Positions 2,651 to 63,986 are shown, counted from the first letter of the stretch. The stretch: DNA of 64,000 bases from Candidatus Anderseniibacteriota bacterium (GCA_040876835.1 JBBDOX010000016.1:98875-162874); one strand, 5' to 3'. The notes: generated by a model not told the origin, from the letters alone. Program-made: numbers and translations.

Positions 2651-3054
2651 TATTTGTTCGCTTCAAGAGCAGAAATTCGTTTCTCGTACCGCTCCTGTTT
2701 TTCCTTGATCATCAGAACTTCATCACTACGGGCGGCACCGACATCCACCATTCGGTTATCAATATATGAATCAATATGTTCAAACAATTCATCAAATCGT
2801 TTATCCATTCTGCTCTCTAGACCATTCAAGTCGCTCTTTGTAGCCATCCTGAGTGTCTCCATATCATCCTTTGTAGCCATCCTGAGTGTCTCCATATCAT
2901 CCTTTGTAGCCATCCTGTTTTCAAGTGCCTTTAAATCGTCCTTGGTGGCAACCTGCTGAAACGCGGAATTTACCGCGTGCATCGCTTCGTTAAACTCACC
3001 TCGAGTGACAGGCTCATTAGGATCACCTTCGGCGGGAAGAATTTCAGCAATCAT
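2647..3054 (-). CDS. Small hydrophilic coiled-coil-like protein with 11-aa tandem repeats (RMATKDDMETL x2 plus a degenerate third)
   Basis: 135 aa ORF. It overlaps the upstream gene by 4 nt (ATGA) and is the last gene of a minus-strand operon. It contains a perfect 33-bp tandem DNA repeat. Confidence 0.5.
   Translation of the reverse strand: MIAEILPAEGDPNEPVTRGEFNEAMHAVNSAFQQVATKDDLKALENRMATKDDMETLRMATKDDMETLRMATKSDLNGLESRMDKRFDELFEHIDSYIDNRMVDVGAARSDEVLMIKEKQERYEKRISALEANKY
2841..2917. repeat. Perfect tandem direct repeat: 33-bp unit 'tagccatcctgagtgtctccatatcatcctttg' x2 (2841-2873, 2874-2906) plus an 11-bp partial third copy
   Basis: Read directly from the sequence. The repeat is in frame within CDS 2647-3054 and encodes KDDMETLRMAT repeats. 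Confidence 0.9.
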
Positions 3055-4511
3055 TCGCTCATTATGCCATCAGTTTCTGCGGTCAGCAACGCTTGTGAAG
3101 TAACTGCGGCGACAATCCAGAAAATCGCGTTTGTGGGAAAGATATCCCAGATATCAATGATAAGGGCTTGAACGAGAAAAGCGGTTAAGAATGCTCCGGC
3201 CCACAGACCAATCAGAGGCTTTTGTGTTCGAGCAATGCGCACGGCCGCACTTCCCACCCGCCAGTACAGCCAACCGTAGAGCACTAGCCCTACTACTCCC
3301 ATTTCTATAAACGTCTTCAGGTACTGGTTATCAACAAGAGTTTGGTCTTTCGTCAGTTGCACACTACGGGAGGCACCGGTGGCGATATCGTAGACTCCCA
3401 GATCAGTTTCACGGAAATTTTGCTCAAGCACGTCTCCTAACCCCCGTCCGAATACTGCTTCTGCATACGTCATGGGAGCAATCAAGCGCACGAGAAACTC
3501 GAGACGCTCCTCATTACTGCCGTAGGTAGGATCCACAATTGATCGCAGAAGCGGCCCAGCAGGAGTCGCTGTGACAAGCAGAATTCCCAGCAGCAATCCC
3601 CCGACTCCAAATCCGGTCGCCAGACTGGCAACTTTTTTTCTGGAGAGGCGTCCTGCTGCCAGATGCAGCAGGTAGAGTAGTCCCCCAACACCAAGAGCTG
3701 CTGCCAAGCCAAGCCAGACTCCTCGTGAATAGGTGGCGTATGTCACTATAAGAGACAGTATAACCGTTGCTAACACACCAGCTCGAATCTTCATTGAACG
3801 GACTGACACAGCAATTGCTACCAGCAATGTTTGGACAGTAATTAGGTATTCTCCGAAAATACTGGGGTGAGCCAGGATTCCGGAGATGCGCGGAATCCAG
3901 TTCTGGGTTAGCGGTTCAAACCGGAGCACCGCACTGTCCTGGGCAAAGAACCACTGCCAGGCGCCTAGAGATAATGTGACGATAAACGTGGCCAGTACCC
4001 ACCCCAGGCGCTGCTGCAAGGTTTTTTTATCATGCCGTAGGTACAGCACTCCGAAAAACAGGAGGATATACAACACGATATCTCGCAAGCGCAAAATACC
4101 CAGCACAAGAGAATCCGCCTGAAGGGCGGAAATAGTTGACCAGATCACTAAGGCTACGATCGGTGCCCACAAGATATTACGGCGATACTCCAATTTCTTC
4201 GCAAGCAGCGGAATGAAGAACATCCGCATAAATAACGTGATGATAATAACATCTTTAATGAGAGAGAAGGTGCCGATTGTCTGCGTAATTTTAAGCATTG
4301 GCAGAATGGGCATTAACACCAGAAAAAGGAGAAAGCCTTCCTCTGGATATTCCCATACCCACCAGGCAACAGCGGCAAACAGTAGAGTAAAGACGCCAAA
4401 TTGCAGACTAAAGAAAAAACTGATAAACGCTGCCACCAGGGTAATAATAAGCGCCCAGGCATAGCGCGGGTTAACTGTTAATCCTCTTGCATGTTCAAAG
4501 CGTCCAATCAT
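3051..4511 (-). CDS. O-antigen ligase / O-antigen polymerase family (Wzy_C) polytopic membrane protein
   Basis: 486 aa with about 10-12 hydrophobic segments. It carries a 'YATYSRGVWLGL' SRG motif, and later 'DNQYLKTFIEMGVVGLVLY', which resembles the Wzy_C H/N-x-YL...G..G signature. Confidence 0.55.
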   Translation of the reverse strand: MIGRFEHARGLTVNPRYAWALIITLVAAFISFFFSLQFGVFTLLFAAVAWWVWEYPEEGFLLFLVLMPILPMLKITQTIGTFSLIKDVIIITLFMRMFFIPLLAKKLEYRRNILWAPIVALVIWSTISALQADSLVLGILRLRDIVLYILLFFGVLYLRHDKKTLQQRLGWVLATFIVTLSLGAWQWFFAQDSAVLRFEPLTQNWIPRISGILAHPSIFGEYLITVQTLLVAIAVSVRSMKIRAGVLATVILSLIVTYATYSRGVWLGLAAALGVGGLLYLLHLAAGRLSRKKVASLATGFGVGGLLLGILLVTATPAGPLLRSIVDPTYGSNEERLEFLVRLIAPMTYAEAVFGRGLGDVLEQNFRETDLGVYDIATGASRSVQLTKDQTLVDNQYLKTFIEMGVVGLVLYGWLYWRVGSAAVRIARTQKPLIGLWAGAFLTAFLVQALIIDIWDIFPTNAIFWIVAAVTSQALLTAETDGIMSE

Positions 4512-5410
4512 GATATAAGCACTTTTTTATTTTTCTTCTGCACCATTCGATGCTTTAATGATGCCGGAAGAGACAGAAGGACGGCAACCGGGAACAAAAG
4601 CGTGAGAACTGCACCAGCAATGATTCCCAGATGTTTGTTTGCATACCGGTAACCACTCACGAGAAAAGGTAGCGAGCGTCGCAGTCCCACTAGTTGATTA
4701 AAACTTACTCCCCCGTAGTGCAGTACAGCAGCGTTCGGTGTATACATAGTTTTCCATCCAGCCTGCTGGGCTCGTTTGCAGTAATCAACCTCTTCAAACC
4801 AGATCCAATACCTTTCATCTAGCGGGCCGACCGCATCCATAGTTTCGTCGCGAATAAGATAGGCTGCCCCCTTTACTTCGTCCACCACCGTTTCGGTACT
4901 GATCCCAGCCTGCCCCTTCATGCTGTTGGGAAACAGTGAATGCAACTTCAGGTACACCGTAATAAGTGTTCCTAGTGTAGGAAAAGAATGAACGGAAGCC
5001 TGAAACTTTCCCCCCGGCTCAAACAGTTTTGGCCCCACAATACCTACATCGCCGTGCCGATCCAATACGTTCAGCATTGTCAGGAGGGCTGCCGGTTGAA
5101 CTTCCGTATCGGGATTTAATAACAGGATATGCTGATCCATTCCATGAGCGTGCAAAGTCCAATCAATGCCTACGTTATTGGCTTTGGCAAACCCTGCATT
5201 TGTTTTTAACTGCTTCCACTCAACCGGTATACCGTAGGTATCCACCTTAGCCTGCTCAACCGAATCATCCGTTGATGCGTTGTCAACCACTACCACCTGA
5301 GTGATCAGATCTTTTTCCGGTAAGGCGCTCAAAGATTCCAGACAACGCTTAAGCAGCGATCCAGTATTCCAGTTAACGATGATTACAGATAAACCTTTCA
5401 TGACAGACAC
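4508..5410 (-). CDS. GT2-family glycosyltransferase
   Basis: 300 aa. 'LSVIIVNWNTGSLLKRCLESL...VVVVDNASTDDS' is the classic GT-A N-terminus. Confidence 0.8.
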   Translation of the reverse strand: MSVMKGLSVIIVNWNTGSLLKRCLESLSALPEKDLITQVVVVDNASTDDSVEQAKVDTYGIPVEWKQLKTNAGFAKANNVGIDWTLHAHGMDQHILLLNPDTEVQPAALLTMLNVLDRHGDVGIVGPKLFEPGGKFQASVHSFPTLGTLITVYLKLHSLFPNSMKGQAGISTETVVDEVKGAAYLIRDETMDAVGPLDERYWIWFEEVDYCKRAQQAGWKTMYTPNAAVLHYGGVSFNQLVGLRRSLPFLVSGYRYANKHLGIIAGAVLTLLFPVAVLLSLPASLKHRMVQKKNKKVLIS

Positions 5411-6501
5411 CGATTAATAATATCAAACGTTTGTTGTGCTGTTTTCTCCCAGGTAAACTTCTGGGCTTGAGCAAGGCTCTTTGTAATGAGCTTGTCTCGC
5501 TCAAGGCGCGCCTGCTGAATACCACGAGCAATACTCGTAGGGTTATAGGGATCAACAAGTATAGCAGCCTCCCCGGCCACTTCTGGCATGGAGGAAACAT
5601 CACTCGTAACAACAGGTGCGCCACACGCCATCGCTTCTATAATCGGGATACCAAAGCCCTCATACAAGCTGACCAACGTAAATACTTCAGCATAAGTATA
5701 TAAAGCCGGGAGAAGTTCGTCGGATACGCGACCCAGCAATAAAATGTCCCTGACATAGGGTGAGGACTTGATACGATCTTCAATCGGTTTTCGTAGCCAA
5801 CCGTGACTGCCGCCGATAACCAGCTGTATTTCCGAGTCCTCCTTTTTAAGTTCTTCGAATGCTTCAATTAAACGAACCAGATTTTTTCGAGGCTGAATTT
5901 GTCCAAGATACAAGATATATGGCTTGCGTAATGCCGGATAGGCAGTTGCAAGTTGTTTCCAAGCAGATTCCTTCTCCTGCACATCAAACTTTTCATGATC
6001 CACACCGTGATGGACGACGTGCACATTCTTAGTACGGCCATATATCTTTTTAATATCATCAGCTGTTGTTTGAGACACCGCAATTAGGTGATCAGCCTCA
6101 ATAATTGCCTGTGCACCGAAAATGGTTAGCAACAGCCAGTTCTTGTAAGTAAACTGCTCGGGGAAGTAATGATAGGCCAGATCATGAATGACTGCGAGGG
6201 TTTTCATTTTGCGGGGACGAACAAGGGGCAGCTGCTGAATTGGCATAAACAAAAGATCCGGCTTTTCTTTATACAACTCCATCGGCATTCGGGACTGAGT
6301 CCAGTATTTCGGCCACGGAGACGGCGCCCACGCTGCATTATCTCTCAGCCTTGGGTGTGCCGGAACCTGACATTGCAGCATCATCTTCCAGGTATGTTCA
6401 GGTGCTACTTTTGGAAGACGGGCGACGAGCTCGTATGTGTACCGAGTCGTTCCGTCAGCCTGGCCGGCACACAGATCGGATGCATCAAAGGCGATTTTCA
6501 T
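5398..6501 (-). CDS. GT4-family (GT-B) glycosyltransferase
   Basis: 367 aa. 'SLYEGFGIPIIEAMACGAPVVTSDVSSMPEVAG' is the Glycos_transf_1 signature. Confidence 0.8.
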   Translation of the reverse strand: MKIAFDASDLCAGQADGTTRYTYELVARLPKVAPEHTWKMMLQCQVPAHPRLRDNAAWAPSPWPKYWTQSRMPMELYKEKPDLLFMPIQQLPLVRPRKMKTLAVIHDLAYHYFPEQFTYKNWLLLTIFGAQAIIEADHLIAVSQTTADDIKKIYGRTKNVHVVHHGVDHEKFDVQEKESAWKQLATAYPALRKPYILYLGQIQPRKNLVRLIEAFEELKKEDSEIQLVIGGSHGWLRKPIEDRIKSSPYVRDILLLGRVSDELLPALYTYAEVFTLVSLYEGFGIPIIEAMACGAPVVTSDVSSMPEVAGEAAILVDPYNPTSIARGIQQARLERDKLITKSLAQAQKFTWEKTAQQTFDIINRCLS

Positions 6502-9173
6502 GACCGTAGCGTATCACGAATTAATGCAAGTAATTGCCCCACACGGGCATCCCATCCATGCTGTCGAGCTAGTTCTTTCCGTTTAATTTCCCCCAGCGTC
6601 TCATGTCGCATCCACTCTTCGATTAATCGCTCGAATTCCCTCGACGAATGAGCATAGCCGATCAAATCCTCATACTGCTTCAATTCAGGCAATCCGGAAA
6701 CCACCAGCGGTTTGCCCGTAGCCATAAACTCCCAGAACTTTAGGGGGAAGCTGGCCTTGTTGTACGCGCTCGCCCGGTATGGAATGACGCAAACATCAAA
6801 GTAGTGGACATACGCAGGTACGTCTTCTCGCACGATTGTTCCCATTATGTGCACATTCGGTAGCTTTACCAACTCCGTTAAGGCTGGAGTTCTTTCATCA
6901 ACAACTGGCGACCCGACAAAAACAAATTGCCAGTCTGGATGCGCGCGAGCTACTGACTTAAGAAGCTCGAAATCAAATTTGTAAGCATCTAGCGCACCAA
7001 CCGATCCTATGATCGGATGCGGGATATCCTGAAGCGCTTCGAGCGCCCCCTGCTGCGCTGTTGCGGATACGGGTTTACTAAACAGTTCAACATCCCCAGC
7101 ATTCAAAACCAGACGCACGTTCTTGTGCTGACCTTTCTTCATGTCATATAGCGCTTTAGAAGTAACAGTGACGAGATCAGAGTGCTGAAATATCCGGTGT
7201 TCTTCAGCATGAACGCGTTTCGGATTGCGACTTACCCCCGCCTGCATCGCGTGATTATCAACACAGTCATATATCACCGTTGAGTTCGAAAAGGCATTCA
7301 GGTACTCAGCCGCCTCCGTGTCATAAATCCACATCACCTGTGTTCCCTCTCGAAAACCCAGCCACCAAGCCTTGCTCAACACACACCAGCGATTGAGGTA
7401 GTGATTCAGCAGTGCCACCCAGCGGTATTCACGGGAACCGGGAATGAGATTCCACTGAGAAATAACGTAGAGGTTTTGCTCATGTTGCTGATACCAGAGT
7501 ACTTGTTTTGCGAATTGAAGAAGTTCAGCAGGCTTCGCTAGGCGTTTCAAGAGATACCGCAGTATCCACACGCGTGGTTCGACGTACAATACGCGGTGCT
7601 GCTTCGCGACGCGATGCATCACGTGCTGACGATTCGTCCAGGTAGGTTGCAAATATTCCGCGCCGGCAAAACAGACAACATTCCATTGGTCGCTGGTAGT
7701 TTCTGCTCCCTTTTGTCGCTTAAGGAGACGAGCGACCTTGGTTGGAATCAGCTGGCTGCGATGGGCTTCGTACCCGGTATATACGCCGATGAGGATAAAT
7801 CCGATGATCCGATACACCAGACTAGGCTCCTGAAACAGCCACCAAACACTAGCAAATAACAGTGTAAGGAGTACTGCCAGCGGTTTCGTTAGGAGGGCAA
7901 TTCCATGTAGCCGCTTCGCGACCACGTTCATCCACACATAAGAGATAGCGGCGCCAGCCAACATGGCTGCACTGGCAAGTAGCGGATCAGGCTTAACAAA
8001 CAGGATCCATACTGTGAGAACCGCAGTTGTTGCCAGCATGACACCATAGATTGACATTCGGCGCTTCGGATCATTAGCCGGTACAAAAATGCTGCTGGTA
8101 CCGATATCCAGGAGGGCGTACAGAAAGAACGCGAGCGTCATCAGCCAGATAATGGGCTCGGCCGGGAGGTACTGCGGTCCGATGATGTACCGCAGTATTT
8201 CGGGCGTGAAGAATAACAGAACGAGTGTCATGAGCATCATCAGCACTAACACCCGATGCATATTCTTGGTTACATTCTTTGAAAATTCTTTCCGTTCGCT
8301 CTCATACAACGAGCTCATCCAGGCGAGGTTTACTTCGGAGAGTGCCATAGCAATAATGGTTAGCTTGGATCCAAAAGTAGACGAAACGTTCAGATATCCC
8401 AATTCTTCTACCGTTACAATCCCGCCTAGCGCTAAGATTGGCAGTCGCTGCCAGACCACAAAAAAGATGCGAGCCACATACATAAAGGCGCCGATGCGCA
8501 TTACGTTCCGCCCATATTTCTTTATATCTGCCTTATTCGGTAGCGACAGATTTCCTGCCAGATATTTGCGTAACAGCCACCAGAACATCACGACCATGAC
8601 GGTAGTGGTGAGAATAACTGCCCAGAAAAATCCACTGACACTAAAGCGCCAGGTTAGATACCCAAAGGCTGCGACATTCAATGTCGCGGTAATAATTTGC
8701 ACCCAGTACAGGGCGGCAAACTTTTTCATGCCGGTTAAGGTGGCGCCGAATACGTCTTGGAACCCTTGCAGTACGAGCGAAGCAGCAAATAGATAGATGT
8801 ATGGAATAATCTCCGGTTTGTTATATACCTTCACGGCAATAACGCCGGCTAGAGCCATCAGGCCAAGTGAGAGCGGAAGAGTAACTGCTTGCCTGACAAT
8901 ATTCGATACCCAAAACACCTTCCCTATCTCATCTTTTTTCTTTCTGATAGCGATCTCGCGAATAGCGCCATCGACGATGCCGAGGTGTTGTGAGACGCCA
9001 ATAACGCTGCCAATGGACATAACAAGGCCCACTAAACCGAATTCGGCGGGTGATAGGACGCGGACGATGATAATGCTTTGAATGACGCCTAAGACGGTAG
9101 TAACCGCCTTAGTCGTTAATGAGAAGAATTGGGTTCGCGCTAAATCCATAAGGCGTATTGTAACCCGTAACAA
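6498..9173 (-). CDS. Fusion protein: N-terminal Wzx-like polysaccharide flippase (MOP superfamily, about 480 aa, about 14 TM) plus a C-terminal GT4-like glycosyltransferase domain
   Basis: 891 aa uninterrupted ORF. The N-terminus resembles polysaccharide-biosynthesis (Wzx) proteins. The C-terminal about 390 aa ends 'FVFVGSPV...YRASAYNKASFPLKFWEFMATGKPLVVSGLPE', typical of a GT-B C-domain. Confidence 0.65.
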   Translation of the reverse strand: MLRVTIRLMDLARTQFFSLTTKAVTTVLGVIQSIIIVRVLSPAEFGLVGLVMSIGSVIGVSQHLGIVDGAIREIAIRKKKDEIGKVFWVSNIVRQAVTLPLSLGLMALAGVIAVKVYNKPEIIPYIYLFAASLVLQGFQDVFGATLTGMKKFAALYWVQIITATLNVAAFGYLTWRFSVSGFFWAVILTTTVMVVMFWWLLRKYLAGNLSLPNKADIKKYGRNVMRIGAFMYVARIFFVVWQRLPILALGGIVTVEELGYLNVSSTFGSKLTIIAMALSEVNLAWMSSLYESERKEFSKNVTKNMHRVLVLMMLMTLVLLFFTPEILRYIIGPQYLPAEPIIWLMTLAFFLYALLDIGTSSIFVPANDPKRRMSIYGVMLATTAVLTVWILFVKPDPLLASAAMLAGAAISYVWMNVVAKRLHGIALLTKPLAVLLTLLFASVWWLFQEPSLVYRIIGFILIGVYTGYEAHRSQLIPTKVARLLKRQKGAETTSDQWNVVCFAGAEYLQPTWTNRQHVMHRVAKQHRVLYVEPRVWILRYLLKRLAKPAELLQFAKQVLWYQQHEQNLYVISQWNLIPGSREYRWVALLNHYLNRWCVLSKAWWLGFREGTQVMWIYDTEAAEYLNAFSNSTVIYDCVDNHAMQAGVSRNPKRVHAEEHRIFQHSDLVTVTSKALYDMKKGQHKNVRLVLNAGDVELFSKPVSATAQQGALEALQDIPHPIIGSVGALDAYKFDFELLKSVARAHPDWQFVFVGSPVVDERTPALTELVKLPNVHIMGTIVREDVPAYVHYFDVCVIPYRASAYNKASFPLKFWEFMATGKPLVVSGLPELKQYEDLIGYAHSSREFERLIEEWMRHETLGEIKRKELARQHGWDARVGQLLALIRDTLRS

Positions 9174-9219
9174 CTAGCGCGTCTTAGGGAGTTTTGCAAG
9201 TAGAAGAAATTTATTAAAC

Positions 9220-9248
9220 AAAAAAATAGCAGCGTTTTCTACACTGCT
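9220..9248 (-). terminator. Rho-independent terminator for gene 9278-9739
   Basis: On the minus-strand RNA an 8-bp stem (AGCAGUGU / ACGCUGCU, including one G-U pair) with a 5-nt loop is followed by AUUUUUUU. On the plus strand this is 9228-9235 and 9241-9248, with the A-run at 9220-9226. Confidence 0.5.
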
Positions 9249-9277
9249 GATTCCTTCAATCAAAGTGCTTAGCCGCC

Positions 9278-9739
9278 CTACTCCTGCGCTGGCCAGGGAG
9301 GAGCCATCTGGGCAAGGTGATTCAGTTTGCTTCGTACCGTGGAAATGATGCGCTCAATCTGAATACGGACGCGGTTCCGTTTGTCCTGACTGACCGGCTC
9401 ATCATAGTACCGCTGCACTGACCCTGATTCGAACAGAGACGAGACAAGATCATCCGTTGATGCGAGCCCGTGCGTATCCGGCCCCGGGGTGAACCGCCAC
9501 AGTCCGTCTGCCCTAAACGAGTAGTTTTCGAAGACGTCAAGAATGTAGTTGTGGCTTCCTTGTTTGCGCATCGTCTCGAGGAGCGCTTTGATGGCCTGCG
9601 CCTCTTCCCCTTCAAGTAAATCGCGGAGCTCCGAGATGGCGCGATCGAACGCTTCCTGGAAAAGAGTGGTCGAAGACCATCTTTTTGCAGCGTCTTGCCA
9701 TCGATTCACCCATTCCTTGCTATCAACTTGATCAGACAC
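9278..9739 (-). CDS. Hypothetical soluble protein (153 aa)
   Basis: ORF with its own downstream terminator. G+C is higher than in the neighbouring genes. No recognisable motif. Confidence 0.45.
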   Translation of the reverse strand: MSDQVDSKEWVNRWQDAAKRWSSTTLFQEAFDRAISELRDLLEGEEAQAIKALLETMRKQGSHNYILDVFENYSFRADGLWRFTPGPDTHGLASTDDLVSSLFESGSVQRYYDEPVSQDKRNRVRIQIERIISTVRSKLNHLAQMAPPWPAQE

Positions 9740-9846
9740 TTGCTGTCTCCCCTATGTTAAGGAACATTCGTCTGTGTCCTCGCAGTCACGCTAGAGCGAC
9801 AAACAAGACAGTCTTATTTAGCATATGCATTAAAAAATTGCAACGG

Positions 9847-10941
9847 TTATCTTTGTAGCAGCAAGTCTAACTTCTTCGCTTGGACTTTCCAGATAAACCT
9901 CTGTCTAGCCCGCTTCTGTCCCTCGTCCCCTAAACGAATCGCAAGTGTTGTATCTAGCAATAATTTTTCCAGTGCTCCCTTTATGCCATCAGCATCCCCC
10001 TCTTCTACTAACAGCCCCGTCTCGTTATCAACAACGGCTCCCGGCACTCCCCCATGTTTCGTTCCAATAACAGGAGTTCCCGCTGCATTCGCTTCTAAAT
10101 ACACAATTCCAAATCCCTCTATATCCCCATCAACATTCTTTGGCGTTAAAGCGAATACGGAAGCTCCAGCTAAAAGTGCTGGCAGGTCAGCTTCATCAAC
10201 GTGGCCTAAGAATTTTGGTTGAACAAATAACTGTCGTGAAAGCTGTTGCAGCCGCTCTTTCTCCGGCCCCTCACCAACAATCACCAGCTGAACATCGCCA
10301 AGGGTTGTTTGTTCTAGCTTTGAATATGCTGTGATTAAATCATCAACGCCTTTGCGAGGTATAAGCCGGGCGACGATAATGATGTATGGCTTCTCGATGT
10401 CGTATTTTTCTAATACGTCTCCATTCTCTGACGCATTAAGATACGTTTCCTCAACTCCAGGTTGTACCTCCACAAGCTTATCAGACGTAACACCAAGTGC
10501 TTCTAACTTTGATTTCGTATGATCATTTATATACACAACCGATTGTGCGTGAGTCAGCGCTTGGATTAGCTTCTTCTTCTTGGTCTTCTCCCACTCTTCA
10601 ATTTCCATCGCATATGTGAAGACGATATACGGAACTCCATATTTCTTGTTTAGTATATATCCAAGTAACCCTTCGAATAATCCTTTGCCGCAAAGTAACA
10701 TATCAATTTCTTTCCGCTTAGCTTTTCTGGCGATATGCCAGTACAGCGGCAACCACGCCGGTTTTATAATCGGCCAAAAGAAACGCCTAGCGGTAATACC
10801 CTCACCGCCCGTACTGCCTTGGGGCGCTATAACTTCAACCTCGTGGTTCAGTAGTCGCAGCTCTTTCACAAGGTTGGTAAGATATCGCTCGATACCTCCA
10901 ACCCGAGGTGGCCAGTTTTCTGTCAGCAGTAATATCTTCAT
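9847..10941 (-). CDS. GT4-family glycosyltransferase
   Basis: 364 aa. N-terminal 'MKILLLTENWPPRVGGIERY'. C-terminal 'GFGIVYLEANAAGTPVIGTKHGGVPGAV'. Confidence 0.8.
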   Translation of the reverse strand: MKILLLTENWPPRVGGIERYLTNLVKELRLLNHEVEVIAPQGSTGGEGITARRFFWPIIKPAWLPLYWHIARKAKRKEIDMLLCGKGLFEGLLGYILNKKYGVPYIVFTYAMEIEEWEKTKKKKLIQALTHAQSVVYINDHTKSKLEALGVTSDKLVEVQPGVEETYLNASENGDVLEKYDIEKPYIIIVARLIPRKGVDDLITAYSKLEQTTLGDVQLVIVGEGPEKERLQQLSRQLFVQPKFLGHVDEADLPALLAGASVFALTPKNVDGDIEGFGIVYLEANAAGTPVIGTKHGGVPGAVVDNETGLLVEEGDADGIKGALEKLLLDTTLAIRLGDEGQKRARQRFIWKVQAKKLDLLLQR

Positions 10942-32045: not shown

Positions 32046-32060
32046 CACATAACTTGGAAT

Positions 32061-37340: not shown

Positions 37341-37351
37341 ACTCCTTCAGT

Positions 37352-38509: not shown

Positions 38510-38513
38510 CGAC

Positions 38514-39659: not shown

Positions 39660-39662
39660 ATA

Positions 39663-56883: not shown

Positions 56884-59749
56884 AGCCATACAACTTCTTC
56901 GCGATAACCGAGTAGGCCTTGCGCTGATCGTTATTGCCTGGATTATATTTTTTAGTCCCATTCTGTCGGGGAAATATGTTTACTTTCTCGATGACTTAAA
57001 AATCATTTACTACCCCTTGGAGTATGAATATGCCCAGGCTCAGGAGAACTGGCAGCTACCTGTGTGGAGTAATACCTTTGGATTTGGGCAACCGCTTATC
57101 GCCTGGGGTCAACTCGGCTTCCTTACCCCCATTCACCTTCTCCTACGGCTTATAGGAATTGCTCCCCTCAATCTTCTACAGGTGTCCGTTGTGTCCTACT
57201 TTTTAGTAGGGCTACTGGGCATGTACACCTTTTTCCGTCAACGCCTCTTTGATCAGCTACCATCAGCCGTGGCTGCTGTTATCTTCGCATTCTCCGGTTT
57301 TGCGATTGGGCATTTGAATCATGTGAACTTTTATACTTCCACCATGCTACTGCCCTGGCTACTGGTGTCAGCATATGCATTACTTCAGAAACCAACCCTG
57401 GGAAGATCTCTTGTTCTTGCCCTAGTTGCCGCTGCCACCACTGTCAGCGGTCAGCCACAGATAGTACTATTTGTCTTTATTGCCGCAGCGGGAGTGAGTC
57501 TGGGACTGCTTATCGAAAAATATGCGCTACAGATTAAAAAGCAAAGAAAACGTATTGCGAAACTAGTATCCTTGACGATCCTGGCCGGCGGCCTGGGCCT
57601 TGTGCTGTCAGCCTTTGCTATTCTCCCTTTGTATGAATTTATTCCGCTTACCGAACGAGCTGAGCCGCTTCCGCCGACAGAGCGTCTGGAATTTAGCTAC
57701 CCGCCCCTCCATGCTGTTACGCTGGTATTACCGTATTTCTTTGGTAATCACGAAAACTACTGGGGGGCTAAGGGCTTTCAGGAACTGGCGGCATTCACGG
57801 GCCTGATCCCGCTATTCCTATCTGGAGCAGCCTTAGTGCGCTGGAAAACTCACAAACCCGAGCGAGTAGTAGGAATACTGTTCATCGCCCTGGCAGTCAT
57901 TATGGCTCTGGGTCGACATTCTTTCCTCTACGCCTACCTGGTCGATCGTCATATTATAACCTCCCTGGGCGTCGCCGGACGATTCGTATTTTTCTTTGAC
58001 CTGGGAATCATGCTGCTGGCCGCGTCCGCGCTTCAGGATCTACAAACTTCAAAGAAGAAGTATGCTTTGCTGGCATGCATAACTGGTCTTCTTTTTACTG
58101 CCGGTATTCTCACCCCCTTCTTCATTTACATGCAGGGCACACCGGATGTCTATACCCGCTTTATTTCTATAGCTTCATCTGCAGACGCTACTTGGATTGC
58201 CGCGCTTCTTGGACTACTGATTATTCCTGCCTACGTCCTTGTGGCATACAGGCAACGATTGGTGAAACCTGTATCGGTGATGATAAGTATCATCGCCACA
58301 GCCACTCTCCTTACATACTCATGGAATTACAATCCGCTTACTTACCGCTCTGCCGCAAACGCTTCAGTTATCTTTGCTGACAACCTCAAACAATACACCA
58401 CCGACAGTGTCACTCCTGCCCGCCTGTACTCTCGTCCCGATCTGATCCAAAATTCCTCTATCACAAAGCATACTGATCCAATTTCTCCTGTCTTTGCTGT
58501 CTACCAGCCGTTTGATATTGAACTAGACAATCTCAGCTGCTTCCGACTGCCTATGCAGTCAGGACCCGAAGCAGTTGGCGAGATTCACCTGGGGTTGCAC
58601 GAAGACCCTCTAGCACAGCCCATTCGCACCCTGACACTTGATAGCGCTGAAGTAGACGCCATATTTGAGGAAAAAGTATGCTTCAATCCGGTTTCAGACA
58701 GTGCCGGTAAACAATACTGGCTCTCAATTACCAGTGATTCCGTCAGTGGAGTAACTCTCTTTTATCAGGACACGGAGCAATCGCAACCTCAAGTATACTT
58801 TGTTCGTAAAGCAGACCCCACAGTCGAGCAATGGCGGCAATCTCAAAAAAACGCGGTGGTAATCGCTGAACCAATCTTCCCCAAACAAATTGACGAGGAA
58901 GCGATTCTTCTAGCCCGTCACTTAAACGTACCTGCCGACAGCTCGAGTGCCCGCTGGATTGGTGCGTTATCTCTGCGTGACTACCGTGCCTTCATCGAAT
59001 TCTTCTTTGCTAATGACAGGGAGCCTATTGACGGAGATGGTCTACATGTTATCCAGCGCTACCGTAATATCCTGAATATGGTTGGAGTTACTCACCTAGC
59101 CCAGATACTCCCCCTCACCAACGAGGACAGCATGTTAAGTAATAACTTCGAGTTAACCGATGAGGTGGCTGTAAGTAACAAGCGCGCCCGCCTATATACC
59201 AATCCACAGGCTTACCCTAAAGCCTTTATGGTAAAAAACGCCGTTTGGAAATCAGCCGCAGACGAGACCCGTGATCGCATGCGTTCATCAGCATTTGATC
59301 CCCAAAAAGTTGTATATATCAGCGGCCCCAGACCCCCGACTGAGCTTGTTAACCAGGACTGGGAGGCAGCTGAAGAGCTGGCCTTAGCCGACACCTCTTC
59401 TCTGACATATACGGCTACTGTTGATCAGTATACCCCCACTCAAGTTGATCTTACCGTTCAAACTGACGAAGACGCCTGGCTGGTGATGACCGACTCCACC
59501 ACTCCGCAATGGCATACAACGATTAACGAGGAGCCCGCTGCACAATATGTTGCGTACTCTGTTTTTAAAGCCGCTTTCATTCCGGCCGGAACCCAGAAAG
59601 TATCCTTCACATATTCCTCCCCGGCAATTGAGTTATCGAAAAACCTAACATTGACGGGCCTAGCTGCCGTTGTCCTTTTATCCGGCCTGACTCTTTATCT
59701 CAGCAAACGCGATTCTTCCTCCGACACCAAGACACCGCCAACTGCATAG
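56870..59749 (+). CDS. YfhO-family-like GT-C membrane glycosyltransferase (about 960 aa)
   Basis: 'FFSPILSGKYVYFLDDLKIIYYPLEYEY' resembles the YfhO N-terminal loop. A polytopic core is followed by a roughly 450-aa C-terminal extracytoplasmic domain. The start is ambiguous between TTG at 56834 and ATG at 56870. Confidence 0.5.
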   Translation: MIRTKAIQLLRDNRVGLALIVIAWIIFFSPILSGKYVYFLDDLKIIYYPLEYEYAQAQENWQLPVWSNTFGFGQPLIAWGQLGFLTPIHLLLRLIGIAPLNLLQVSVVSYFLVGLLGMYTFFRQRLFDQLPSAVAAVIFAFSGFAIGHLNHVNFYTSTMLLPWLLVSAYALLQKPTLGRSLVLALVAAATTVSGQPQIVLFVFIAAAGVSLGLLIEKYALQIKKQRKRIAKLVSLTILAGGLGLVLSAFAILPLYEFIPLTERAEPLPPTERLEFSYPPLHAVTLVLPYFFGNHENYWGAKGFQELAAFTGLIPLFLSGAALVRWKTHKPERVVGILFIALAVIMALGRHSFLYAYLVDRHIITSLGVAGRFVFFFDLGIMLLAASALQDLQTSKKKYALLACITGLLFTAGILTPFFIYMQGTPDVYTRFISIASSADATWIAALLGLLIIPAYVLVAYRQRLVKPVSVMISIIATATLLTYSWNYNPLTYRSAANASVIFADNLKQYTTDSVTPARLYSRPDLIQNSSITKHTDPISPVFAVYQPFDIELDNLSCFRLPMQSGPEAVGEIHLGLHEDPLAQPIRTLTLDSAEVDAIFEEKVCFNPVSDSAGKQYWLSITSDSVSGVTLFYQDTEQSQPQVYFVRKADPTVEQWRQSQKNAVVIAEPIFPKQIDEEAILLARHLNVPADSSSARWIGALSLRDYRAFIEFFFANDREPIDGDGLHVIQRYRNILNMVGVTHLAQILPLTNEDSMLSNNFELTDEVAVSNKRARLYTNPQAYPKAFMVKNAVWKSAADETRDRMRSSAFDPQKVVYISGPRPPTELVNQDWEAAEELALADTSSLTYTATVDQYTPTQVDLTVQTDEDAWLVMTDSTTPQWHTTINEEPAAQYVAYSVFKAAFIPAGTQKVSFTYSSPAIELSKNLTLTGLAAVVLLSGLTLYLSKRDSSSDTKTPPTA

Positions 59750-61740
59750 CGTAGCCGTATAGCAAGATTACCTTCTCTTACGTCACTGTCAGTAATACTT
59801 CCGCTTTGCGAAAAGAACATGTTTGAGTTGCGATACTTATGCTCACTAGTGTATCGGACTGTTGGAGCGTTTCCTGTTGCAGTACCAGTAGCATATATTT
59901 CTACAAACACCGCTTGCCCGCTTCGATTGATCGCTTGCGGCAATGGCAAGGTCATCCATTCATCGTTTGCAATATTGCTAACGGGTACCTCCCAACGATG
60001 AAGCAGGTGACCCTGGAGCGCATCTTTAAGTTCGGCAACAAATACGCCCGAGTCAGCTCTGCCGCTGAATGTCGGTACAAGCACATCAATACCCCCGAGT
60101 TGTTCGTGCTCGACTGCTATTTCCTGCCCTACTCTAACCGCTGTTGTAAGCTCGCCCACATGCCGTTCATATGACCGCTGCTCATATACCCAGGCATATT
60201 CCTTACCAGAAATCATAGCGACAAATACTGGCGTTCGTTTGCTGTAATACTGTTCAACCATCTCCGTAGCTGGATGATCAGCAGCTCGCCCGAACATGTT
60301 GCGATACAGCACGACGAATTGATTCTGGGGATGTTCATGGGCGCCGTAGTCCAGAACCTGGGCGGAAGTATATGCCTGGAGCTCCTGCGGATACCACGAA
60401 GCTACAACAGCCTCAGGATGATTTTCCGAAAGCCACAAGCCCACCTGATCCAACCCCTCTCCCCAGCCCAGTTCCTGACTTAGGTTATCGGGGAATATGG
60501 GGTTACTGTACGCAATCTCGTACGGATGGTACTGCCAAACCACTGTTGCGAGATATATCACAGCAGCGCTTATCGGTACTACCGGAGCTATGCGCCAGCG
60601 TTTAATAGCCATGGTGCCAATGCCAAGAAGAGCAGTGGCCGCCAGTATATCCAGCACCGGGTACACTGGCAAAATGTACCGGTCACCTTTCTTTGCTCCC
60701 AGAGTCATCATGAGCACAAAAAATATCACGAACGATACGAGCAGCAGTACCGGGCGACTATCTCGCCCAGCCAACCCCTCTTTTGCAATACGCCAGATAA
60801 TATACAAGACGGCTAGAGTCGCAAATATTAGCGTTACTGGGGTAGTGCGCGTCACCAGTGCTGCCGGATAATGCCAGGGATTTAAAGTATATTCCTCGGC
60901 CATGTGGTGAGGTGTTACGGCAGCAATTGTTAAGTCTCGTCTAATAAGGTTAGCGTTGCCTTCGGGGTTAGGGACGAATATTAAAGCCGGCCAGGTAAAG
61001 AGAATGAGCAATATAATCATAAGCAACCACGCTACCAGGTCACGACTACGTGCCAGCAAAACACGCTTTAAGAATATCTTTTTGTTCTCATACACCAATA
61101 CTGTCAGTAGGAAAAACGGGATGATAAATATGGCAGGAGCCTTAGTGAGAATAGCCGCAGCTGACAACACCCCCGAGATCACCAGCCACCGGCGGGAATA
61201 ACCTTCTTGCGCGTAGATGATGACTGATAAGGCGGCTAATACCAGTAGGCTCGCCAGCAATGCATCCACATGAGCCACACGTGAATATCCAATCAGAAAA
61301 GGATTTAGTGCAATCAGTATCCCAGCAGTACCAGCCAGCAGCTGTGAAATAGACAGACGACGAAGAAAAATATATATCAGTGGAACTGCCAGTGCATTCA
61401 CGAGCGCAATGGGAAATTGAGCTGCCTTTACAAAATGGATGATATTCGCCAGTGAGAACGGCACGTGGCCGATCATCATTTTAACCGCAATAGCTGTGCC
61501 CGACAGCCACATAGTTGTGACCCCAGGATGCGTTGTCTGCAACATGTCATTAAAACGCAGGTCTTTGAACGCTCGCACGAACTCATAGGAGCGTATCATC
61601 CAGTTTTTTTCATCCGCAGTCAGAAAGGACCCAAGATCAAGCAGACGCGGGAGTGCTGCAATGATAAAAATTCCGATGACAATAAGAATGTCACGTTTAT
61701 GAGTGACGTAAAAACGATGGATATGAGTCCGTACCTGCAT
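59695..61740 (-). CDS. GT-C-fold glycosyltransferase, ArnT/PMT_2-like (paralog C, with an extra C-terminal domain)
   Basis: 681 aa. 'LTADEKNW', 'HPGVTTMWL', 'ALNPFLIGYSRVAHVDALL', 'QELGWGEGLDQVGLWLSENHP'. It overlaps the convergent gene by 55 nt. Confidence 0.5.
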   Translation of the reverse strand: MQVRTHIHRFYVTHKRDILIVIGIFIIAALPRLLDLGSFLTADEKNWMIRSYEFVRAFKDLRFNDMLQTTHPGVTTMWLSGTAIAVKMMIGHVPFSLANIIHFVKAAQFPIALVNALAVPLIYIFLRRLSISQLLAGTAGILIALNPFLIGYSRVAHVDALLASLLVLAALSVIIYAQEGYSRRWLVISGVLSAAAILTKAPAIFIIPFFLLTVLVYENKKIFLKRVLLARSRDLVAWLLMIILLILFTWPALIFVPNPEGNANLIRRDLTIAAVTPHHMAEEYTLNPWHYPAALVTRTTPVTLIFATLAVLYIIWRIAKEGLAGRDSRPVLLLVSFVIFFVLMMTLGAKKGDRYILPVYPVLDILAATALLGIGTMAIKRWRIAPVVPISAAVIYLATVVWQYHPYEIAYSNPIFPDNLSQELGWGEGLDQVGLWLSENHPEAVVASWYPQELQAYTSAQVLDYGAHEHPQNQFVVLYRNMFGRAADHPATEMVEQYYSKRTPVFVAMISGKEYAWVYEQRSYERHVGELTTAVRVGQEIAVEHEQLGGIDVLVPTFSGRADSGVFVAELKDALQGHLLHRWEVPVSNIANDEWMTLPLPQAINRSGQAVFVEIYATGTATGNAPTVRYTSEHKYRNSNMFFSQSGSITDSDVREGNLAIRLRYAVGGVLVSEEESRLLR

Positions 61741-61768: not shown

Positions 61769-61810
61769 AAAAAAATGAAGCCCCGGGTCACAAGGTGCGA
61801 CGCGGGGCTT
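61769..61810 (-). terminator. Rho-independent terminator (minus strand)
   Basis: aagccccg (61778-61785) and cggggctt (61803-61810) form an 8-bp GC-rich stem with a 17-nt loop. On the minus strand it is followed by UUUUUUU (plus-strand A-run at 61769-61775). Confidence 0.45.
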
Positions 61811-61811
61811 A

Positions 61812-61855
61812 CTGCAGGAGAAGGAAATGAACGATCAAATGTATTTCTCCTGCAG
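61812..61855. repeat. Perfect 11-bp inverted repeat: ctgcaggagaa (61812-61822) and ttctcctgcag (61845-61855), with a 22-nt spacer
   Basis: Read directly from the sequence. It lies adjacent to the terminator hairpin. Confidence 0.8.
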
Positions 61856-61856
61856 G

Positions 61857-62460
61857 AATGGTTCCGAAAGAAGAGAGCTCTCCGCCTGTTGCACAGAGGG
61901 CGTGTCGGGTGAGTTTAGCCCGCACAGAGGCCAAAGCTGGTGCACGACAGGCGGAGAGCCGACAGAGGAAGGCCTCCACCCGCCTGCAAAGCACTCCTGA
62001 CAGGAGACACTTCGTGCCGGATGTACTTTGCGGCGACCCACACTAGACGCGGGTCACAGCGGGTGGAGGGTTCGCGACGGGGAGCTCCTGGCGAAAGATC
62101 TTCCCGACGCTATCTGGAAAGACATAGACTCAAGACGTCCACACATGCCGAACAAGTCCGGCAAAGCTTGCTTGGTAGGCCCCCTCAGAACCCTAGGCAA
62201 GCTGTCTTGTCCTATCCTCCTCGAGGAGAGTTAGAGTTACATCTTCCCAAAGTACGTGCGTGATGCAGAGCGCATCACGCGGGCCGGCGGCGCCGGTCAG
62301 TCGCTATTGATGCTCCCACGGCCAGCGTACGACACACGCATTTTGGGGGTCTCCTCTTCCTCTGAGAAATTGAAAGTGGCTAGCTTCTCACCATGAGAAG
62401 CTGCCTGACAAAGGTATAATTTGTTTACACCTAGACTCAGGAATTGTCAATAATGCCGAC
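61857..62460. other. G+C-enriched non-coding region rich in nested helices; candidate structured RNA of unknown class, or decayed remnant
   Basis: No credible ORF (only Arg-rich, SD-less frames). Nested complementary pairs include ctccgcctgt (61880-61889) with acaggcggag (61947-61956), caggcgg with ccgcctg, and agcttctc with gagaagct (62382-62402). Confidence 0.3.
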
Positions 62461-62495
62461 TTACAGTACTAATATTTACCCCTAATAAGCCATTA

Positions 62496-63281
62496 TTATA
62501 TCCCCACTATGCGGAAATGCGACAGTTCAGGGCAAAGGTCCCCAGGAGCTGTTCCTCCTGGTGTTTCCAGGCGCCTATAATGCACCAGCCACTTTGCCTG
62601 TTTAGCATCATCTTCTGGCAGCACAGTCAGTTTTGCATTCGTGTGACTGACATATTGAAGCCGATTCCAGATATGAATGTTTTCACTATATACCGGCCCC
62701 GCATCTTCTAAACATCGGATCAACGACCGGGTGTCAGCCAGGTCAGCTGCAGTATTTGTCCGATTTCCTAACGAAAAATCGTTTACACTACCACCGGTTT
62801 TAACGAACGGTATAAATACTCCAAACAACGTCCAGGCAGATAATCCCACTGTCAGTGTAATTACAAGTATTGTTCGAACGGAGGTTAGTTTGATGAATCT
62901 CTCGACGACTGCCCCCACACCCAACCCTGCCAGAATCCACAACCCCAGAACAAACATAGTGAAGTACCGCAAATTGAGACGATCGATTATATAAAGCAAT
63001 ATACCCAGGTGCAGCATTAGTCCCGCAATCCACAACCATATAGCCTTACGGCGCCACAGCAATACAATTGCCAGCATTGCCAGAGCAATAACAATCCAGC
63101 TAATAATCTGCGTAACTGGAGGGGTGAGCTCTAATCCCGTGTAGTTAGCTATATAGGAAGATCCTGATACATATAACATCCACGCCTCTTTGAAAGCCTG
63201 AGCCCGTTCAGAGAACAGTTCCGCAACCGCACCGGGGTCCCCCTGATCTTCTTTGTATAGTGCCAGGACTACAAACTGCAT
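62496..63281 (-). CDS. Polytopic membrane protein; probable C-terminal half of a split PMT_2/ArnT-like GT-C gene
   Basis: 261 aa. It is in the same frame as 63294-63986, separated by a TGA and 12 nt. Confidence 0.4.
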   Translation of the reverse strand: MQFVVLALYKEDQGDPGAVAELFSERAQAFKEAWMLYVSGSSYIANYTGLELTPPVTQIISWIVIALAMLAIVLLWRRKAIWLWIAGLMLHLGILLYIIDRLNLRYFTMFVLGLWILAGLGVGAVVERFIKLTSVRTILVITLTVGLSAWTLFGVFIPFVKTGGSVNDFSLGNRTNTAADLADTRSLIRCLEDAGPVYSENIHIWNRLQYVSHTNAKLTVLPEDDAKQAKWLVHYRRLETPGGTAPGDLCPELSHFRIVGI

Positions 63282-63293
63282 TGCGAAACCAGC

Positions 63294-63986
63294 TCAGAAT
63301 CCTACCGCAGCTTCAACGAAGCTAACACCAAAAAATTTCAGCTGAAACTTAACTCCCTCTTCCCTTTGATCGAGTGCATCTTTCACAAACACTCCAAGCC
63401 CGACAAGACCAGCAGCAGCAAGTGTCGCCAGGAATATAATGTGGTTAGCCAGACCCAATCCACCCGCAAGACCAGCCCACAACCATTTACGCTTCCAGTT
63501 GCGCAATAGAATATTTAGTATCAAGAATGCAAAGAAAGGAAATAGCGTAATCGTCCAGCCCAGTCGCTGATACAGAATATATATTGGAGTAAACGTAAGA
63601 GCCACGAGGCCATATAACCCCGCCCAGCGACCAAACAGTGTGCGCAATACATATTCGGCCAGCCAGAACGTTGCAAACGAGAAGAACAGCATCGGTAGCC
63701 GTATCGCCAAGGTCGTATAGCCAAACAGCAGGATAAATGGAACCCGCAGGTAATCTATCAGCGGTCCGATGTATGACCGCTCGCCTGTAACAGTGATGCC
63801 TTCGCGGGTAAGCAGCTCGTACACATTTTCCCCCTCCGATCCCTCATCCCCCATCAGGCCAGGGGCACTCGAAATCCACAGCGAATTCATCACTACAAAA
63901 AGCGCAAACACTGCCCAAACGGCTCGACGATACCACATATCTGGAGGGTTCTGAGAGTCCATATCTTCTTGTATACTACAACACAT
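63294..63986 (-). CDS. Polytopic membrane protein; probable N-terminal half of a split PMT_2/ArnT-like GT-C gene
   Basis: 230 aa. The first-loop 'MGDEGSEGENVYELL' DE motif is followed by multiple TM and basic loops. Confidence 0.4.
   Translation of the reverse strand: MCCSIQEDMDSQNPPDMWYRRAVWAVFALFVVMNSLWISSAPGLMGDEGSEGENVYELLTREGITVTGERSYIGPLIDYLRVPFILLFGYTTLAIRLPMLFFSFATFWLAEYVLRTLFGRWAGLYGLVALTFTPIYILYQRLGWTITLFPFFAFLILNILLRNWKRKWLWAGLAGGLGLANHIIFLATLAAAGLVGLGVFVKDALDQREEGVKFQLKFFGVSFVEAAVGF

Follow-up and report, generated by a model that had tools for sequence, protein, structure and literature searches.

We analyzed a 64,000-nucleotide stretch of DNA, hereafter the window (GCA_040876835.1, JBBDOX010000016.1:98875-162874), from the deposited metagenome-assembled genome (MAG) of an uncultured Candidatus Andersenbacteria bacterium, a member of the Candidate Phyla Radiation (CPR)/Patescibacteria. 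The window is crowded with genes for large polytopic membrane proteins of the GT-C glycosyltransferase type, three Dpm1-like GT2 synthases, and numerous cytoplasmic glycosyltransferases. An earlier note, made from the DNA alone, had described an envelope-glycosylation island at positions 3051 to 63986, and this interpretation, taken as a whole, was supported by our analysis. Pfam scans took in 48 open reading frames (ORFs) of the window; genes are called by their lower coordinate, as shown in Table 1.

Host, extent, and architecture of the locus

The proteins of the window carry the accessions MEX0650086 to MEX0650120 (locus tags WD200_03710 to WD200_03870) under the name Candidatus Andersenbacteria bacterium and belong to a contig of 209,866 bp. 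Among GTDB contigs, sampled at one genome per species, relatives of its MurJ (26052) came nearly all from Candidatus Andersenbacteria MAGs (56 to 84% identity); some of the MAGs with a MurJ relative bear automatic "Saccharibacteria" labels. Genomes of CPR bacteria measure about 1 Mb. The G+C content of the window is 48% and uniform (46 to 50%), and the Pfam scans revealed no transposase or integrase in it.

Eleven genes for large polytopic GT-C-type proteins occupy 22.6 kb, or 35% of the window by summed ORF coordinates. Where pairwise identity among them is detectable, it does not exceed 39%, and most pairs gave no BLAST match. Recent tandem duplication was therefore rejected as the source of their density. 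The genes form at least 12 blocks distributed over both strands, which makes the island a contiguous cluster and not the single operon that the earlier note had proposed.

The island is also larger than the span first given to it, since GT-C homologues go on past the right edge. In the same sample's assembly (contig L031, positions 1 to 9984), it continues for at least 10 kb, with four further large membrane proteins (769, 610, 657, and 918 amino acids [aa]) followed by an epimerase/dehydratase and a GT4. The 657-aa protein belongs to the PMT family (BLAST E value of 2.5e-66 to 59695), the 610-aa protein is YfhO-like (hhalign, 95%), and the 918-aa protein is a member of the 46100/51734 family (hhalign, 97%); the 769-aa protein has a layout similar to that of the other large membrane proteins. 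On the left (contig L032, positions 1 to 10000) lie a Mur ligase, two GT2 proteins, ScpA/ScpB, a Peptidase_S11 protein (D-Ala-D-Ala carboxypeptidase), an MraY-family gene, and MurD, so that the island abuts peptidoglycan synthesis genes. Cell wall genes also occur within the window, namely, those for MurJ and for SpoIID-, FemAB-, and YfiH-family proteins.

Three Dpm1-like synthases

Three GT2 proteins (13455, 17959, and 30020) had been taken for Dpm1/GtrB-like synthases of polyprenyl-phosphate sugars, and this assignment held. The best solved relative of each was the dolichol-phosphate mannose synthase of P. furiosus (5MLZ; E values of 4.9e-13, 5.4e-12, and 5.2e-31, respectively), followed by ArnC. 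The DAD motif of 5MLZ was aligned and intact in all three, none of which has lost the DXD/DAD residues on which the assignment hinged. By hydropathy, 13455 has two C-terminal transmembrane (TM) helices (at residues 242 and 279), and 17959 and 30020 have none. The catalytic domains of Ppm1 and human DPM1 likewise lack TM helices. No partner protein that might anchor 17959 or 30020 in the membrane was found.

The top NCBIfam matches across the three proteins were AglJ, PpgS, and a dolichol-phosphate-hexose transferase. AglJ ranked first for 13455 (144.8 bits) and 30020, in both cases ahead of PpgS, and second to PgaC_IcaA for 17959. Among the core genes compared, 30020 showed the highest identity to its orthologues (69 to 74%).

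Large GT-C-type membrane proteins

Each of the 11 large polytopic ORFs displayed 8 to 15 hydropathy peaks. Scores above the Pfam gathering cut-off were obtained for 44572, 50192, 59695, and 62496/63294 (PMT/PMT_2) and for 56834 (YfhO). Conversely, 16096, 20289, 40805, 46100, and 54682 had no useful Pfam or NCBIfam match, even at E values of up to 10. Four of these five were assigned to the GT-C type by other means: 16096 and 40805 by structure, and 46100 and 20289 by profile comparison. The claim that the large membrane proteins are GT-C enzymes is thus backed by Pfam, structure, or profile comparison for 10 of the 11, the exception being 54682; none of the families found by profile or structure points to transporters. 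What the data show is the fold or family identity of these 10 proteins, along with the conserved motifs of the GT-C proteins and synthases and the synteny of the core.

The models of 16096 and 40805 predicted by AlphaFold2 consist of long helices throughout. AftA, AftB, and AftD were among the top matches of the predicted structures, and Pmt2 and Pmt4 were strong matches. When the family profiles of 16096 and 20289 were compared with PDB sequences, no GT-C match was found. For 20289, the assignment came from hhalign, which became informative among unassigned proteins only after the alignments had been deepened: the family profile (64 sequences) matched the 40805 family with a probability of 90.2% (E value of 1.5e-6, 461 columns). 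In addition, 4 of 14 orthologues of 20289 matched PF20176 (DUF6541; best E value of 8.6e-11), as did several distant relatives, one of which (P0195) scored 33.5 bits, above the cut-off of 29. The DUF6541 model is also touched by the PMT-family protein 44572, and hits to this model or to DUF6311, both uncharacterized, came from some relatives of 20289 and 40805. These cross-hits, together with the hhalign result, would place DUF6541 in the GT-C clan. By homology to 40805, the C-terminal domain of 20289 is probably also related to carbohydrate-binding modules (CBM-like).

Some of these families are rare. The 20289 family has only 115 cluster representatives among 1.84 billion proteins, and 46100 has only 2 homologues among 5.8 billion proteins. 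A metagenome scan with 59695 returned no relatives. The orphan 54682 consists of TM1, an accessory domain (residues 60 to 162), a YYHDDLAL motif, and about eight or more TM helices.

All 11 proteins carry one or more acidic residues directly after a TM helix. The motif is DE in 44572, 50192, 59695, 46100, 51734, and 62496/63294 and DD in 56834 and 54682. Across 64 to 111 homologues, D129 of 16096 and D43 of 40805 are invariant, and D126 of 20289, in a PTGD loop, is nearly so. In 16096, the residues F125, G128, D129, E159-Y160-P161, and H165 are invariant in the first large outer loop; in 40805, this holds for G41-G42-D43, where the first outer loop begins (numbered from the Met at 42889). As judged from the sequences, these acidic residues would lie in an extracytoplasmic loop. 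By analogy with characterized members of the families, and with three synthases in the same locus, the GT-C proteins would use polyprenyl-phosphate-sugar donors on the outer face of the membrane.

The PMT_2 gene at the right end of the window, which the earlier note had listed as 62496/63294, was counted here as one gene. It is split by a single in-frame TGA (63294 to 63296, minus strand) into ORFs of 230 and 261 aa (...AVGF*AGFAMQF...) that stay in a single frame. NCBI and Logan call two genes, the N-terminal one being annotated by NCBI as "glycosyltransferase family 39 protein." The gene could be a pseudogene, carry an assembly error, or be read through.

A domain shared by six GT-C-type proteins

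An uncharacterized, presumably extracytoplasmic domain of about 130 residues, with the pattern VGQ...SGR...LRTV...FEPI.DS.GK.Y, is common to six of the GT-C-type proteins. Using phmmer, we searched 53 island proteins with residues 29 to 175 of a right-flank protein (L031, 1143 to 3899). Matches were found in a second right-flank protein (L031, 3896 to 5869; E value of 2e-18) and in 59695 (4.5e-6), 56834 (9.6e-6), 54682 (1.1e-4), and 51734 (2.3e-4). The domain follows TM1 in some proteins (such as 54682, in the segment given above) and lies at the C terminus in others (such as 59695, residues 523 to 652), which suggests domain shuffling. It spans residues 62 to 160 in 51734 and 538 to 662 in 56834. 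It is the only tie of 54682 to verified GT-C proteins. Searches of Pfam and PDB gave no convincing relative of the domain, only a weak DUF6212 match in one member.

A conserved core and a variable arm

As the earlier note had proposed, synteny was compared across relatives, and the core of the island proved to be conserved in Andersenbacteria MAGs. The region from 14374 to 37340 is collinear in 10 to 17 Andersenbacteria MAG loci. In two long relative contigs (L028 and L029), the backbone carries on through four GT4 genes to the orthologue of 40805, which is found class-wide. Beyond this orthologue, both contigs enter a variable arm that encodes a PMT, a protein similar to 46100, methyltransferases, and DegT. 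Contigs L026 to L028 share the arm module; its order is kept in L027, at 66 to 93% protein identity, and it is rearranged in another contig. The arms of L026 and L029 hold a small GT2 of their own beside a GT-C gene.

The island therefore comprises a conserved core (14.4 to 42.9 kb) and a right arm that varies and is rich in methyltransferases and in paralogues of PMT, PMT_2, and YfhO. This split suggests a common backbone with lineage-specific decoration, and through the arm, the surface structure may come to differ from one lineage to the next.

Cytoplasmic enzymes and other features of the window

Using Pfam, we counted 16 cytoplasmic transferases: 11 GT4 domains (5398, the C terminus of 6498, 9847, 14374, 19106, 33475, 36123, 37352, 38514, 39663, and 48385), one of them fused to Wzx, as well as 2 GT2, 2 GT9, and 1 Glyco_trans_1_2 protein. 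A TagF-like gene comes in addition to these. The three methyltransferases, two Wzx flippases, MurJ (245 bits), CE4 deacetylase, and Wzy_C protein were likewise all found where they had been placed. The gene order from 30861 to 34620 is the same in contig L028 and partly kept in L029, and the run of four GT4 genes (36123 to 40808) is conserved in both; the true start of 37352 is probably internal. We take the YfiH/PgeF family of 15467 to be linked to peptidoglycan editing.

Several further observations were made in this part of the window. The fusion of Wzx and GT4 in a single ORF (6498 to 9173) is an unusual architecture. A small ORF between the FemAB and Wzy_C genes (2647 to 3054, minus strand, 135 aa), probably a coiled coil, contains a perfect 33-bp tandem repeat of 2.5 copies (2836 to 2917) that encodes ATKDDMETLRM repeats. 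Between Wzx and MurJ, a trio of genes (24080 to 24664, 24668 to 24835, and 24835 to 26055) is kept class-wide, and no family match was obtained for any of the three. The N-terminal domain of 24835 weakly resembles that of 46100/51734 (hhalign, 49%), and its family profile gave no GT-C match among PDB sequences.

A GC-rich segment lies between two of the GT-C genes. Its GC content is 58 to 64%, versus about 47% in the flanks, and it folds much better than shuffled sequences do (z scores, -7.6 for the minus strand and -6.2 for the plus strand). The minus-strand sequence terminates in a GC hairpin followed by U6, about 30 nucleotides upstream of the start of the PMT gene 59695. A TTGACA box was seen by eye near 62447 to 62452 (minus strand), where the consensus scan did not call a promoter. 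Searches for Rfam, tRNA, and tmRNA matches to the segment were negative, and the relative loci examined contained no copy of it. The segment is a candidate for a novel structured (noncoding) RNA or for a long leader of the attenuator type, and it is a putative member of the glycan system.

Table 1. Genes and other features of the window, with the evidence for each assignment
Feature	Coordinates	Strand	Evidence
DegT-type sugar aminotransferase	378-1649	+	PF01041, 221.6 bits
FemAB-family aminoacyl transferase	1631-2650	+	PF02388, 135.7 bits
Wzy_C (O-antigen ligase/polymerase-like) polytopic protein	3051-4511	-	PF04932, 49.6 bits (cut-off, 31.7); about 10 TM helices
GT2	4508-5410	-	Pfam
GT4	5398-6501	-	Pfam
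Wzx-type flippase (about 10 TM helices) with C-terminal GT4, 891 aa	6498-9173	-	PF13440/PF01943, residues 16-338; PF13692/PF00534, residues 720-857
GT4	9847-10941	-	PF00534, 137.8 bits
SpoIID-domain protein (cell wall remodeling), N-terminal TM helix	11926-13392	-	PF08486, 45.7 bits
GT2 synthase-like protein, two C-terminal TM helices (GtrB/ArnC/AglJ architecture)	13455-14447	+	PF00535; motif IDADGQF
GT4, first gene of class-wide syntenic core	14374-15525	+	Pfam; orthologues 44-48% identical in relative loci L009-L013
Cu-oxidase_4 (YfiH/PgeF-family) protein	15467-16099	-	PF02578, 50 bits
GT-C-fold glycosyltransferase, no Pfam/NCBIfam family model	16096-17892	-	Structure
Soluble Dpm1-like GT2, candidate polyprenyl-phosphate-sugar synthase	17959-18669	+	PF00535, 106.9 bits; motif IDADGAT; 56-69% identity in relatives
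NUDIX hydrolase	18666-19109	+	PF00293 on the called gene in L001
GT4	19106-20248	+	Pfam
GT-C-type glycosyltransferase, DUF6541-related family, C-terminal extracytoplasmic domain	20289-22628	+	Profile comparison
Wzx/MATE-like flippase	22625-24076	+	PF13440, PF01943, PF01554
194-aa protein, N-terminal TM helix	24080-24664	+	No Pfam match; syntenic orthologues
55-aa membrane ORF	24668-24835	+	No family match
406-aa polytopic protein, N-terminal outer domain of about 170 aa	24835-26055	+	No Pfam match; syntenic orthologues
MurJ-family flippase	26052-27635	+	PF03023, 245.1 bits
GT-B-like (Glyco_trans_1_2) protein	27841-28929	+	PF13524, 25.9 bits; orthologues of the 27841/28934 pair 55-63% identical
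GT9-like protein	28934-30010	+	PF01075, 31.8 bits (weak)
Candidate Dpm1-type polyprenyl-phosphate mannose/hexose synthase	30020-30727	+	Dol-P-Man synthase 5MLZ, E 5.2e-31, residues 6-230; motif MDADFSH
TagF-like glycerophosphotransferase-like protein	30861-32045	+	PF04464, 31 bits (weak), C-terminal part
CE4 deacetylase	32061-32708	+	PF01522, 70.2 bits
GT2	32705-33478	+	PF00535
GT4	33475-34620	+	PF00534
GT9 (heptosyltransferase family)	35044-36126	+	PF01075, 111.6 bits
Four consecutive GT4	36123-37340, 37352-38899, 38514-39659, 39663-40808	-	Pfam
GT-C-fold glycosyltransferase, C-terminal CBM-like beta-sandwich	40805-42889	-	Structure
SAM-dependent methyltransferase	42864-43595	-	PF08241 and related families
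SAM-dependent methyltransferase	43653-44570	+	PF08241 and related families
PMT-family GT-C, TIDERLW after TM1	44572-46095	-	PF02366, 41.1 bits (cut-off, 22.7)
PMT_2-like GT-C, N-terminal outer domain of about 180 aa, INDEQFY	46100-48388	+	hhalign to 51734, 98%, E 2.5e-13, 505 columns
GT4	48385-49491	+	Pfam
SAM methyltransferase	49560-50195	+	Pfam
PMT-family GT-C, TIDEPLW	50192-51730	+	PF02366, 29.5 bits; 39% identical to 44572 (BLAST E 1.3e-99)
PMT_2-like GT-C, N-terminal accessory domain, NNDEGAY	51734-54112	-	PF13231, 20.8 bits (below cut-off); Agl23 TIGR03663, E 9.2e-7 (weak)
175-aa protein, N-terminal TM helix	54197-54724	+	No Pfam match; homologue in L028, 43% identity
Orphan polytopic membrane protein, putative GT-C	54682-56883	+	726 aa as called in L030/L031
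YfhO-family GT-C, FLDD after TM1	56834-59749	+	PF09586, 40.9 bits (cut-off, 28.5)
PMT-family GT-C, TADEKNW, C-terminal accessory domain	59695-61740	-	PF02366, 33 bits; PF13231, 30.5 bits
GC-rich structured segment	61770-62350, within 61770-62420	-	755-bp ORF-free gap between two GT-C genes
PMT_2 (GT39-like) GT-C, MGDEGSEG	62496-63986	-	PF13231, 28.8 bits (cut-off, 26.1), N-terminal part
SAM, S-adenosylmethionine.

Discussion

Within the window and about 10 kb on each side, which was the extent of the check, the gene set matches no canonical lipopolysaccharide (LPS), wall teichoic acid, or capsule locus, as the earlier note had stated. An LPS core locus was rejected: there are GT9 genes, but no lipid A or Kdo genes occur in the window, and CPR bacteria have been reported to lack a Gram-negative envelope (PMC6744442). 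A wall teichoic acid locus was rejected as well, as the window holds only a weak TagF-like match and no ABC exporter or CDP-glycerol genes. With Wzx/Wzy loci for O antigen or capsule, the island shares two Wzx proteins, Wzy_C, many GT4 and GT2 proteins, and a sugar aminotransferase; unlike them, it has no initiating phosphoglycosyltransferase, chain length regulator, or export apparatus in the window.

A closer likeness is to the transmembrane glycosylation systems, described as three-component extracytoplasmic glycosylation (PMC11127046) and as multicomponent transmembrane glycosylation in Gram-positive bacteria (PMC8035078). In GtrA/GtrB/Gtr*, CsbB-GtcA-YfhO, Pgf, and GT136 systems, a GT2 polyprenyl-phosphate-sugar synthase is paired with a GT-C enzyme acting outside the membrane. 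The island shares this pairing, members of the YfhO family and PMT_2, and MATE/Wzx-like candidates for the donor flippase, as in the GT136 pentofuranose system. However, a known system comprises a single synthase and one GT-C enzyme, rarely two, and serves to decorate a polymer that is made elsewhere (PMC11127046, PMC8035078), whereas the island has three synthases and 10 or 11 GT-C genes within 64 kb; outside the window, three more GT-C homologues and a fourth protein similar to them follow. Unlike Gtr systems, moreover, it has no GtrA that we could find, and for three of its GT-C families the window protein has no Pfam or NCBIfam model. In the relative contig L029, a PMT_2 protein also matches GtrA_DPMS_TM.

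The logic also resembles that of lipomannan, lipoarabinomannan, and arabinogalactan assembly in mycobacteria and corynebacteria (Ppm1; PimE, MptA/B/C, EmbA/B/C, and AftA to AftD), where many different GT-C enzymes draw on polyprenyl-monophosphate sugars to synthesize and branch, outside the membrane, a polymer associated with the wall. CBM-like domains on some GT-C proteins and a Ppm1-like soluble Dpm1 domain (30020) add to the likeness. At the sequence level, however, the island proteins are not Emb, Aft, or Mpt proteins, and Pfam revealed neither a DPPR synthase nor DprE1/E2 in the window. The mycobacterial genes for wall polymer assembly are scattered over a 4.4-Mb genome; here, by contrast, the genes are concentrated in one CPR island. 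A third likeness is to protein O-mannosylation (PMT/GT39; actinobacterial Pmt and fungal Pmt1/2/4) and archaeal S-layer glycosylation (AglJ, AglB, and Agl23), which share PMT/PMT_2 proteins with the DE motif and a Dpm1-type donor synthase. Fungal Pmts carry MIR domains, and Actinobacteria have a single Pmt. Unlike the former, the island proteins showed no MIR domains and share the 130-residue domain instead; unlike the latter, the island holds paralogues in a number far above one.

Taken together, we consider it probable that the locus is a supercluster for the assembly of a cell envelope glycan, adjoining peptidoglycan genes. According to our model, the cytoplasmic GT4, GT2, and GT9 enzymes would build one or more lipid-linked oligosaccharides, which would be modified by the DegT aminotransferase, the FemAB-type acyl/aminoacyl transferase, the three SAM methyltransferases, and the CE4 deacetylase. 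Wzx-type flippases would export the lipid-linked intermediates, and the Wzy_C protein would polymerize or ligate them. In parallel, the three Dpm1/ArnC-like GT2 proteins would convert nucleotide sugars into polyprenyl-phosphate sugars. As no GtrA is present, the MATE/Wzx-like proteins are the candidates for flipping these lipid-monophosphate sugars. At least 10 GT-C enzymes would then use them on the outer face, each for a particular sugar or linkage, on the polymer, on surface proteins, or on both. For the enzymes of the conserved core, a polysaccharide acceptor is favored by the CBM-like domain of 40805 and by the C terminus of 20289, which is homologous to it; for the PMT-family paralogues, proteins would be equally plausible acceptors. 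What we infer from these data are the donors and acceptors, the membrane orientation, the flippases, and the number of pathways, one or several.

Several observations weigh against this model. Pfam revealed no priming phosphoglycosyltransferase (Bac_transf or Glycos_transf_4) in the window; the sole nearby PF00953 gene, about 8 kb to the left and beside MurD, is probably MraY. A GtrA-type flippase is missing (no PF04138 match in any window ORF of at least 150 aa), as are an LCP ligase and almost all genes for nucleotide-sugar synthesis, so that the pathway cannot be closed from the DNA of the window. All three synthases scored far below the NCBIfam equivalog cut-offs, and hence neither a specific orthology nor a sugar can be assigned to them. 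No relatives of 54682 were found in Pfam, NCBIfam, PDB (single-sequence search), the metagenome scan, or a phmmer search of ORFs from relative and flanking loci, and the PMT_2 gene with the in-frame stop may be dead. The many blocks on both strands and the variable arm imply that what we describe as one pathway may be several. Members of the PMT family in Actinobacteria glycosylate proteins, not polymers. Finally, the evidence as a whole comes from sequences and predicted structures from the MAG of an uncultured organism.

A possible but doubtful alternative is that the island is chiefly a machine for protein O-glycosylation. Polyprenyl-phosphate mannose or hexose would serve as the donor, and PMT, PMT_2, and YfhO paralogues would act on different secreted proteins (S-layer proteins, pilins, or adhesins), comparable to actinobacterial PMT and streptococcal Pgf, with the GT4 enzymes extending the glycans or serving a separate polymer. 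Six or seven of the GT-C genes are indeed of PMT/PMT_2, the family of protein O-mannosyltransferases, each with a DE motif, but PMT_2 also includes ArnT-like glycosyltransferases of lipids and polymers. The many paralogues with differing accessory domains could mirror different protein substrates, and AglJ and Agl23, matched weakly in NCBIfam, are archaeal S-layer glycosylation proteins. However, the CBM-like domain of 40805 is typical of GT-C enzymes that act on polysaccharides, such as Emb and AftD; Wzx, Wzy_C, 11 GT4 domains, the TagF-like protein, and CE4 are hallmarks of polymer synthesis; and no candidate glycoprotein gene, such as one for a Ser/Thr-rich secreted protein, was seen in the window.

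We regard as rather unlikely that the island is a collocation of independent systems, that is, peptidoglycan helpers, a conserved secondary wall polymer locus, and hypervariable decoration modules (GT-C with a methyltransferase or a GT4) swapped for evasion of phages or hosts, its density reflecting a recombination hotspot. The many blocks on both strands would fit this view, as would a right arm that differs between relatives beside a conserved core, the near absence of homologues for 46100 (two) and 54682 (none found), the gene with an in-frame stop, and the small GT2 that the arms of L026 and L029 hold beside a GT-C gene. Against it speak the uniform GC content, the absence of any transposase or integrase from the Pfam scans of the window, the preserved order and the identity of the arm module in L027, and the class-wide presence of 40805, which sits at the core/arm junction. 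Moreover, this alternative largely refines the glycan assembly model rather than contradicting it. It is improbable that some of the GT-C-fold proteins are not glycosyltransferases at all but scaffolds, polymerases or ligases, or flippase-associated (Agl23-like) proteins, in which case the active count would be much lower.

Within the envelope glycan model, we tentatively propose a bolder version: a large, methylated, wall-linked lipoglycan or polysaccharide built, in spite of a genome of only about a megabase, mostly outside the membrane from polyprenyl-phosphate sugars, an independently arisen strategy in the style of mycobacteria that would involve at least four GT-C families new at the sequence level and a new substrate-binding domain shared among the proteins, with the arm setting lineage-specific surface types for host attachment or phage escape. 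In the literature on Andersenbacteria and CPR glycosyltransferases, GT-C enzymes, and DUF6541/DUF6311, we found neither the locus nor any expansion of GT-C enzymes in CPR bacteria described. Compared with known transmembrane glycosylation, what is new is the number of GT-C enzymes in one locus, the lack of GtrA, three class-wide GT-C families whose members in the window match no Pfam or NCBIfam model, the shared domain, and the CPR host; the host and the adjoining MurD, MraY, and MurJ genes make the finding more notable.

The class-wide families of 16096, 20289, and 40805 are each candidates for a new CAZy family, and high-confidence structural models are at hand for two of the three (16096 and 40805). 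Together with the Dpm1-type synthase 30020 and the accessory domain of the six enzymes, these proteins are targets that can be expressed and assayed without cultivation. The split into core and arm also provides a marker by which the surface diversity of Andersenbacteria could be followed in metagenomes. A life attached to other cells is assumed for CPR bacteria, and their surface chemistry is essentially unknown. In a lineage with a small genome, the commitment of over 64 kb to the assembly of surface glycans, with about 35% taken up by large GT-C enzymes, suggests that surface glycans matter greatly to these bacteria.

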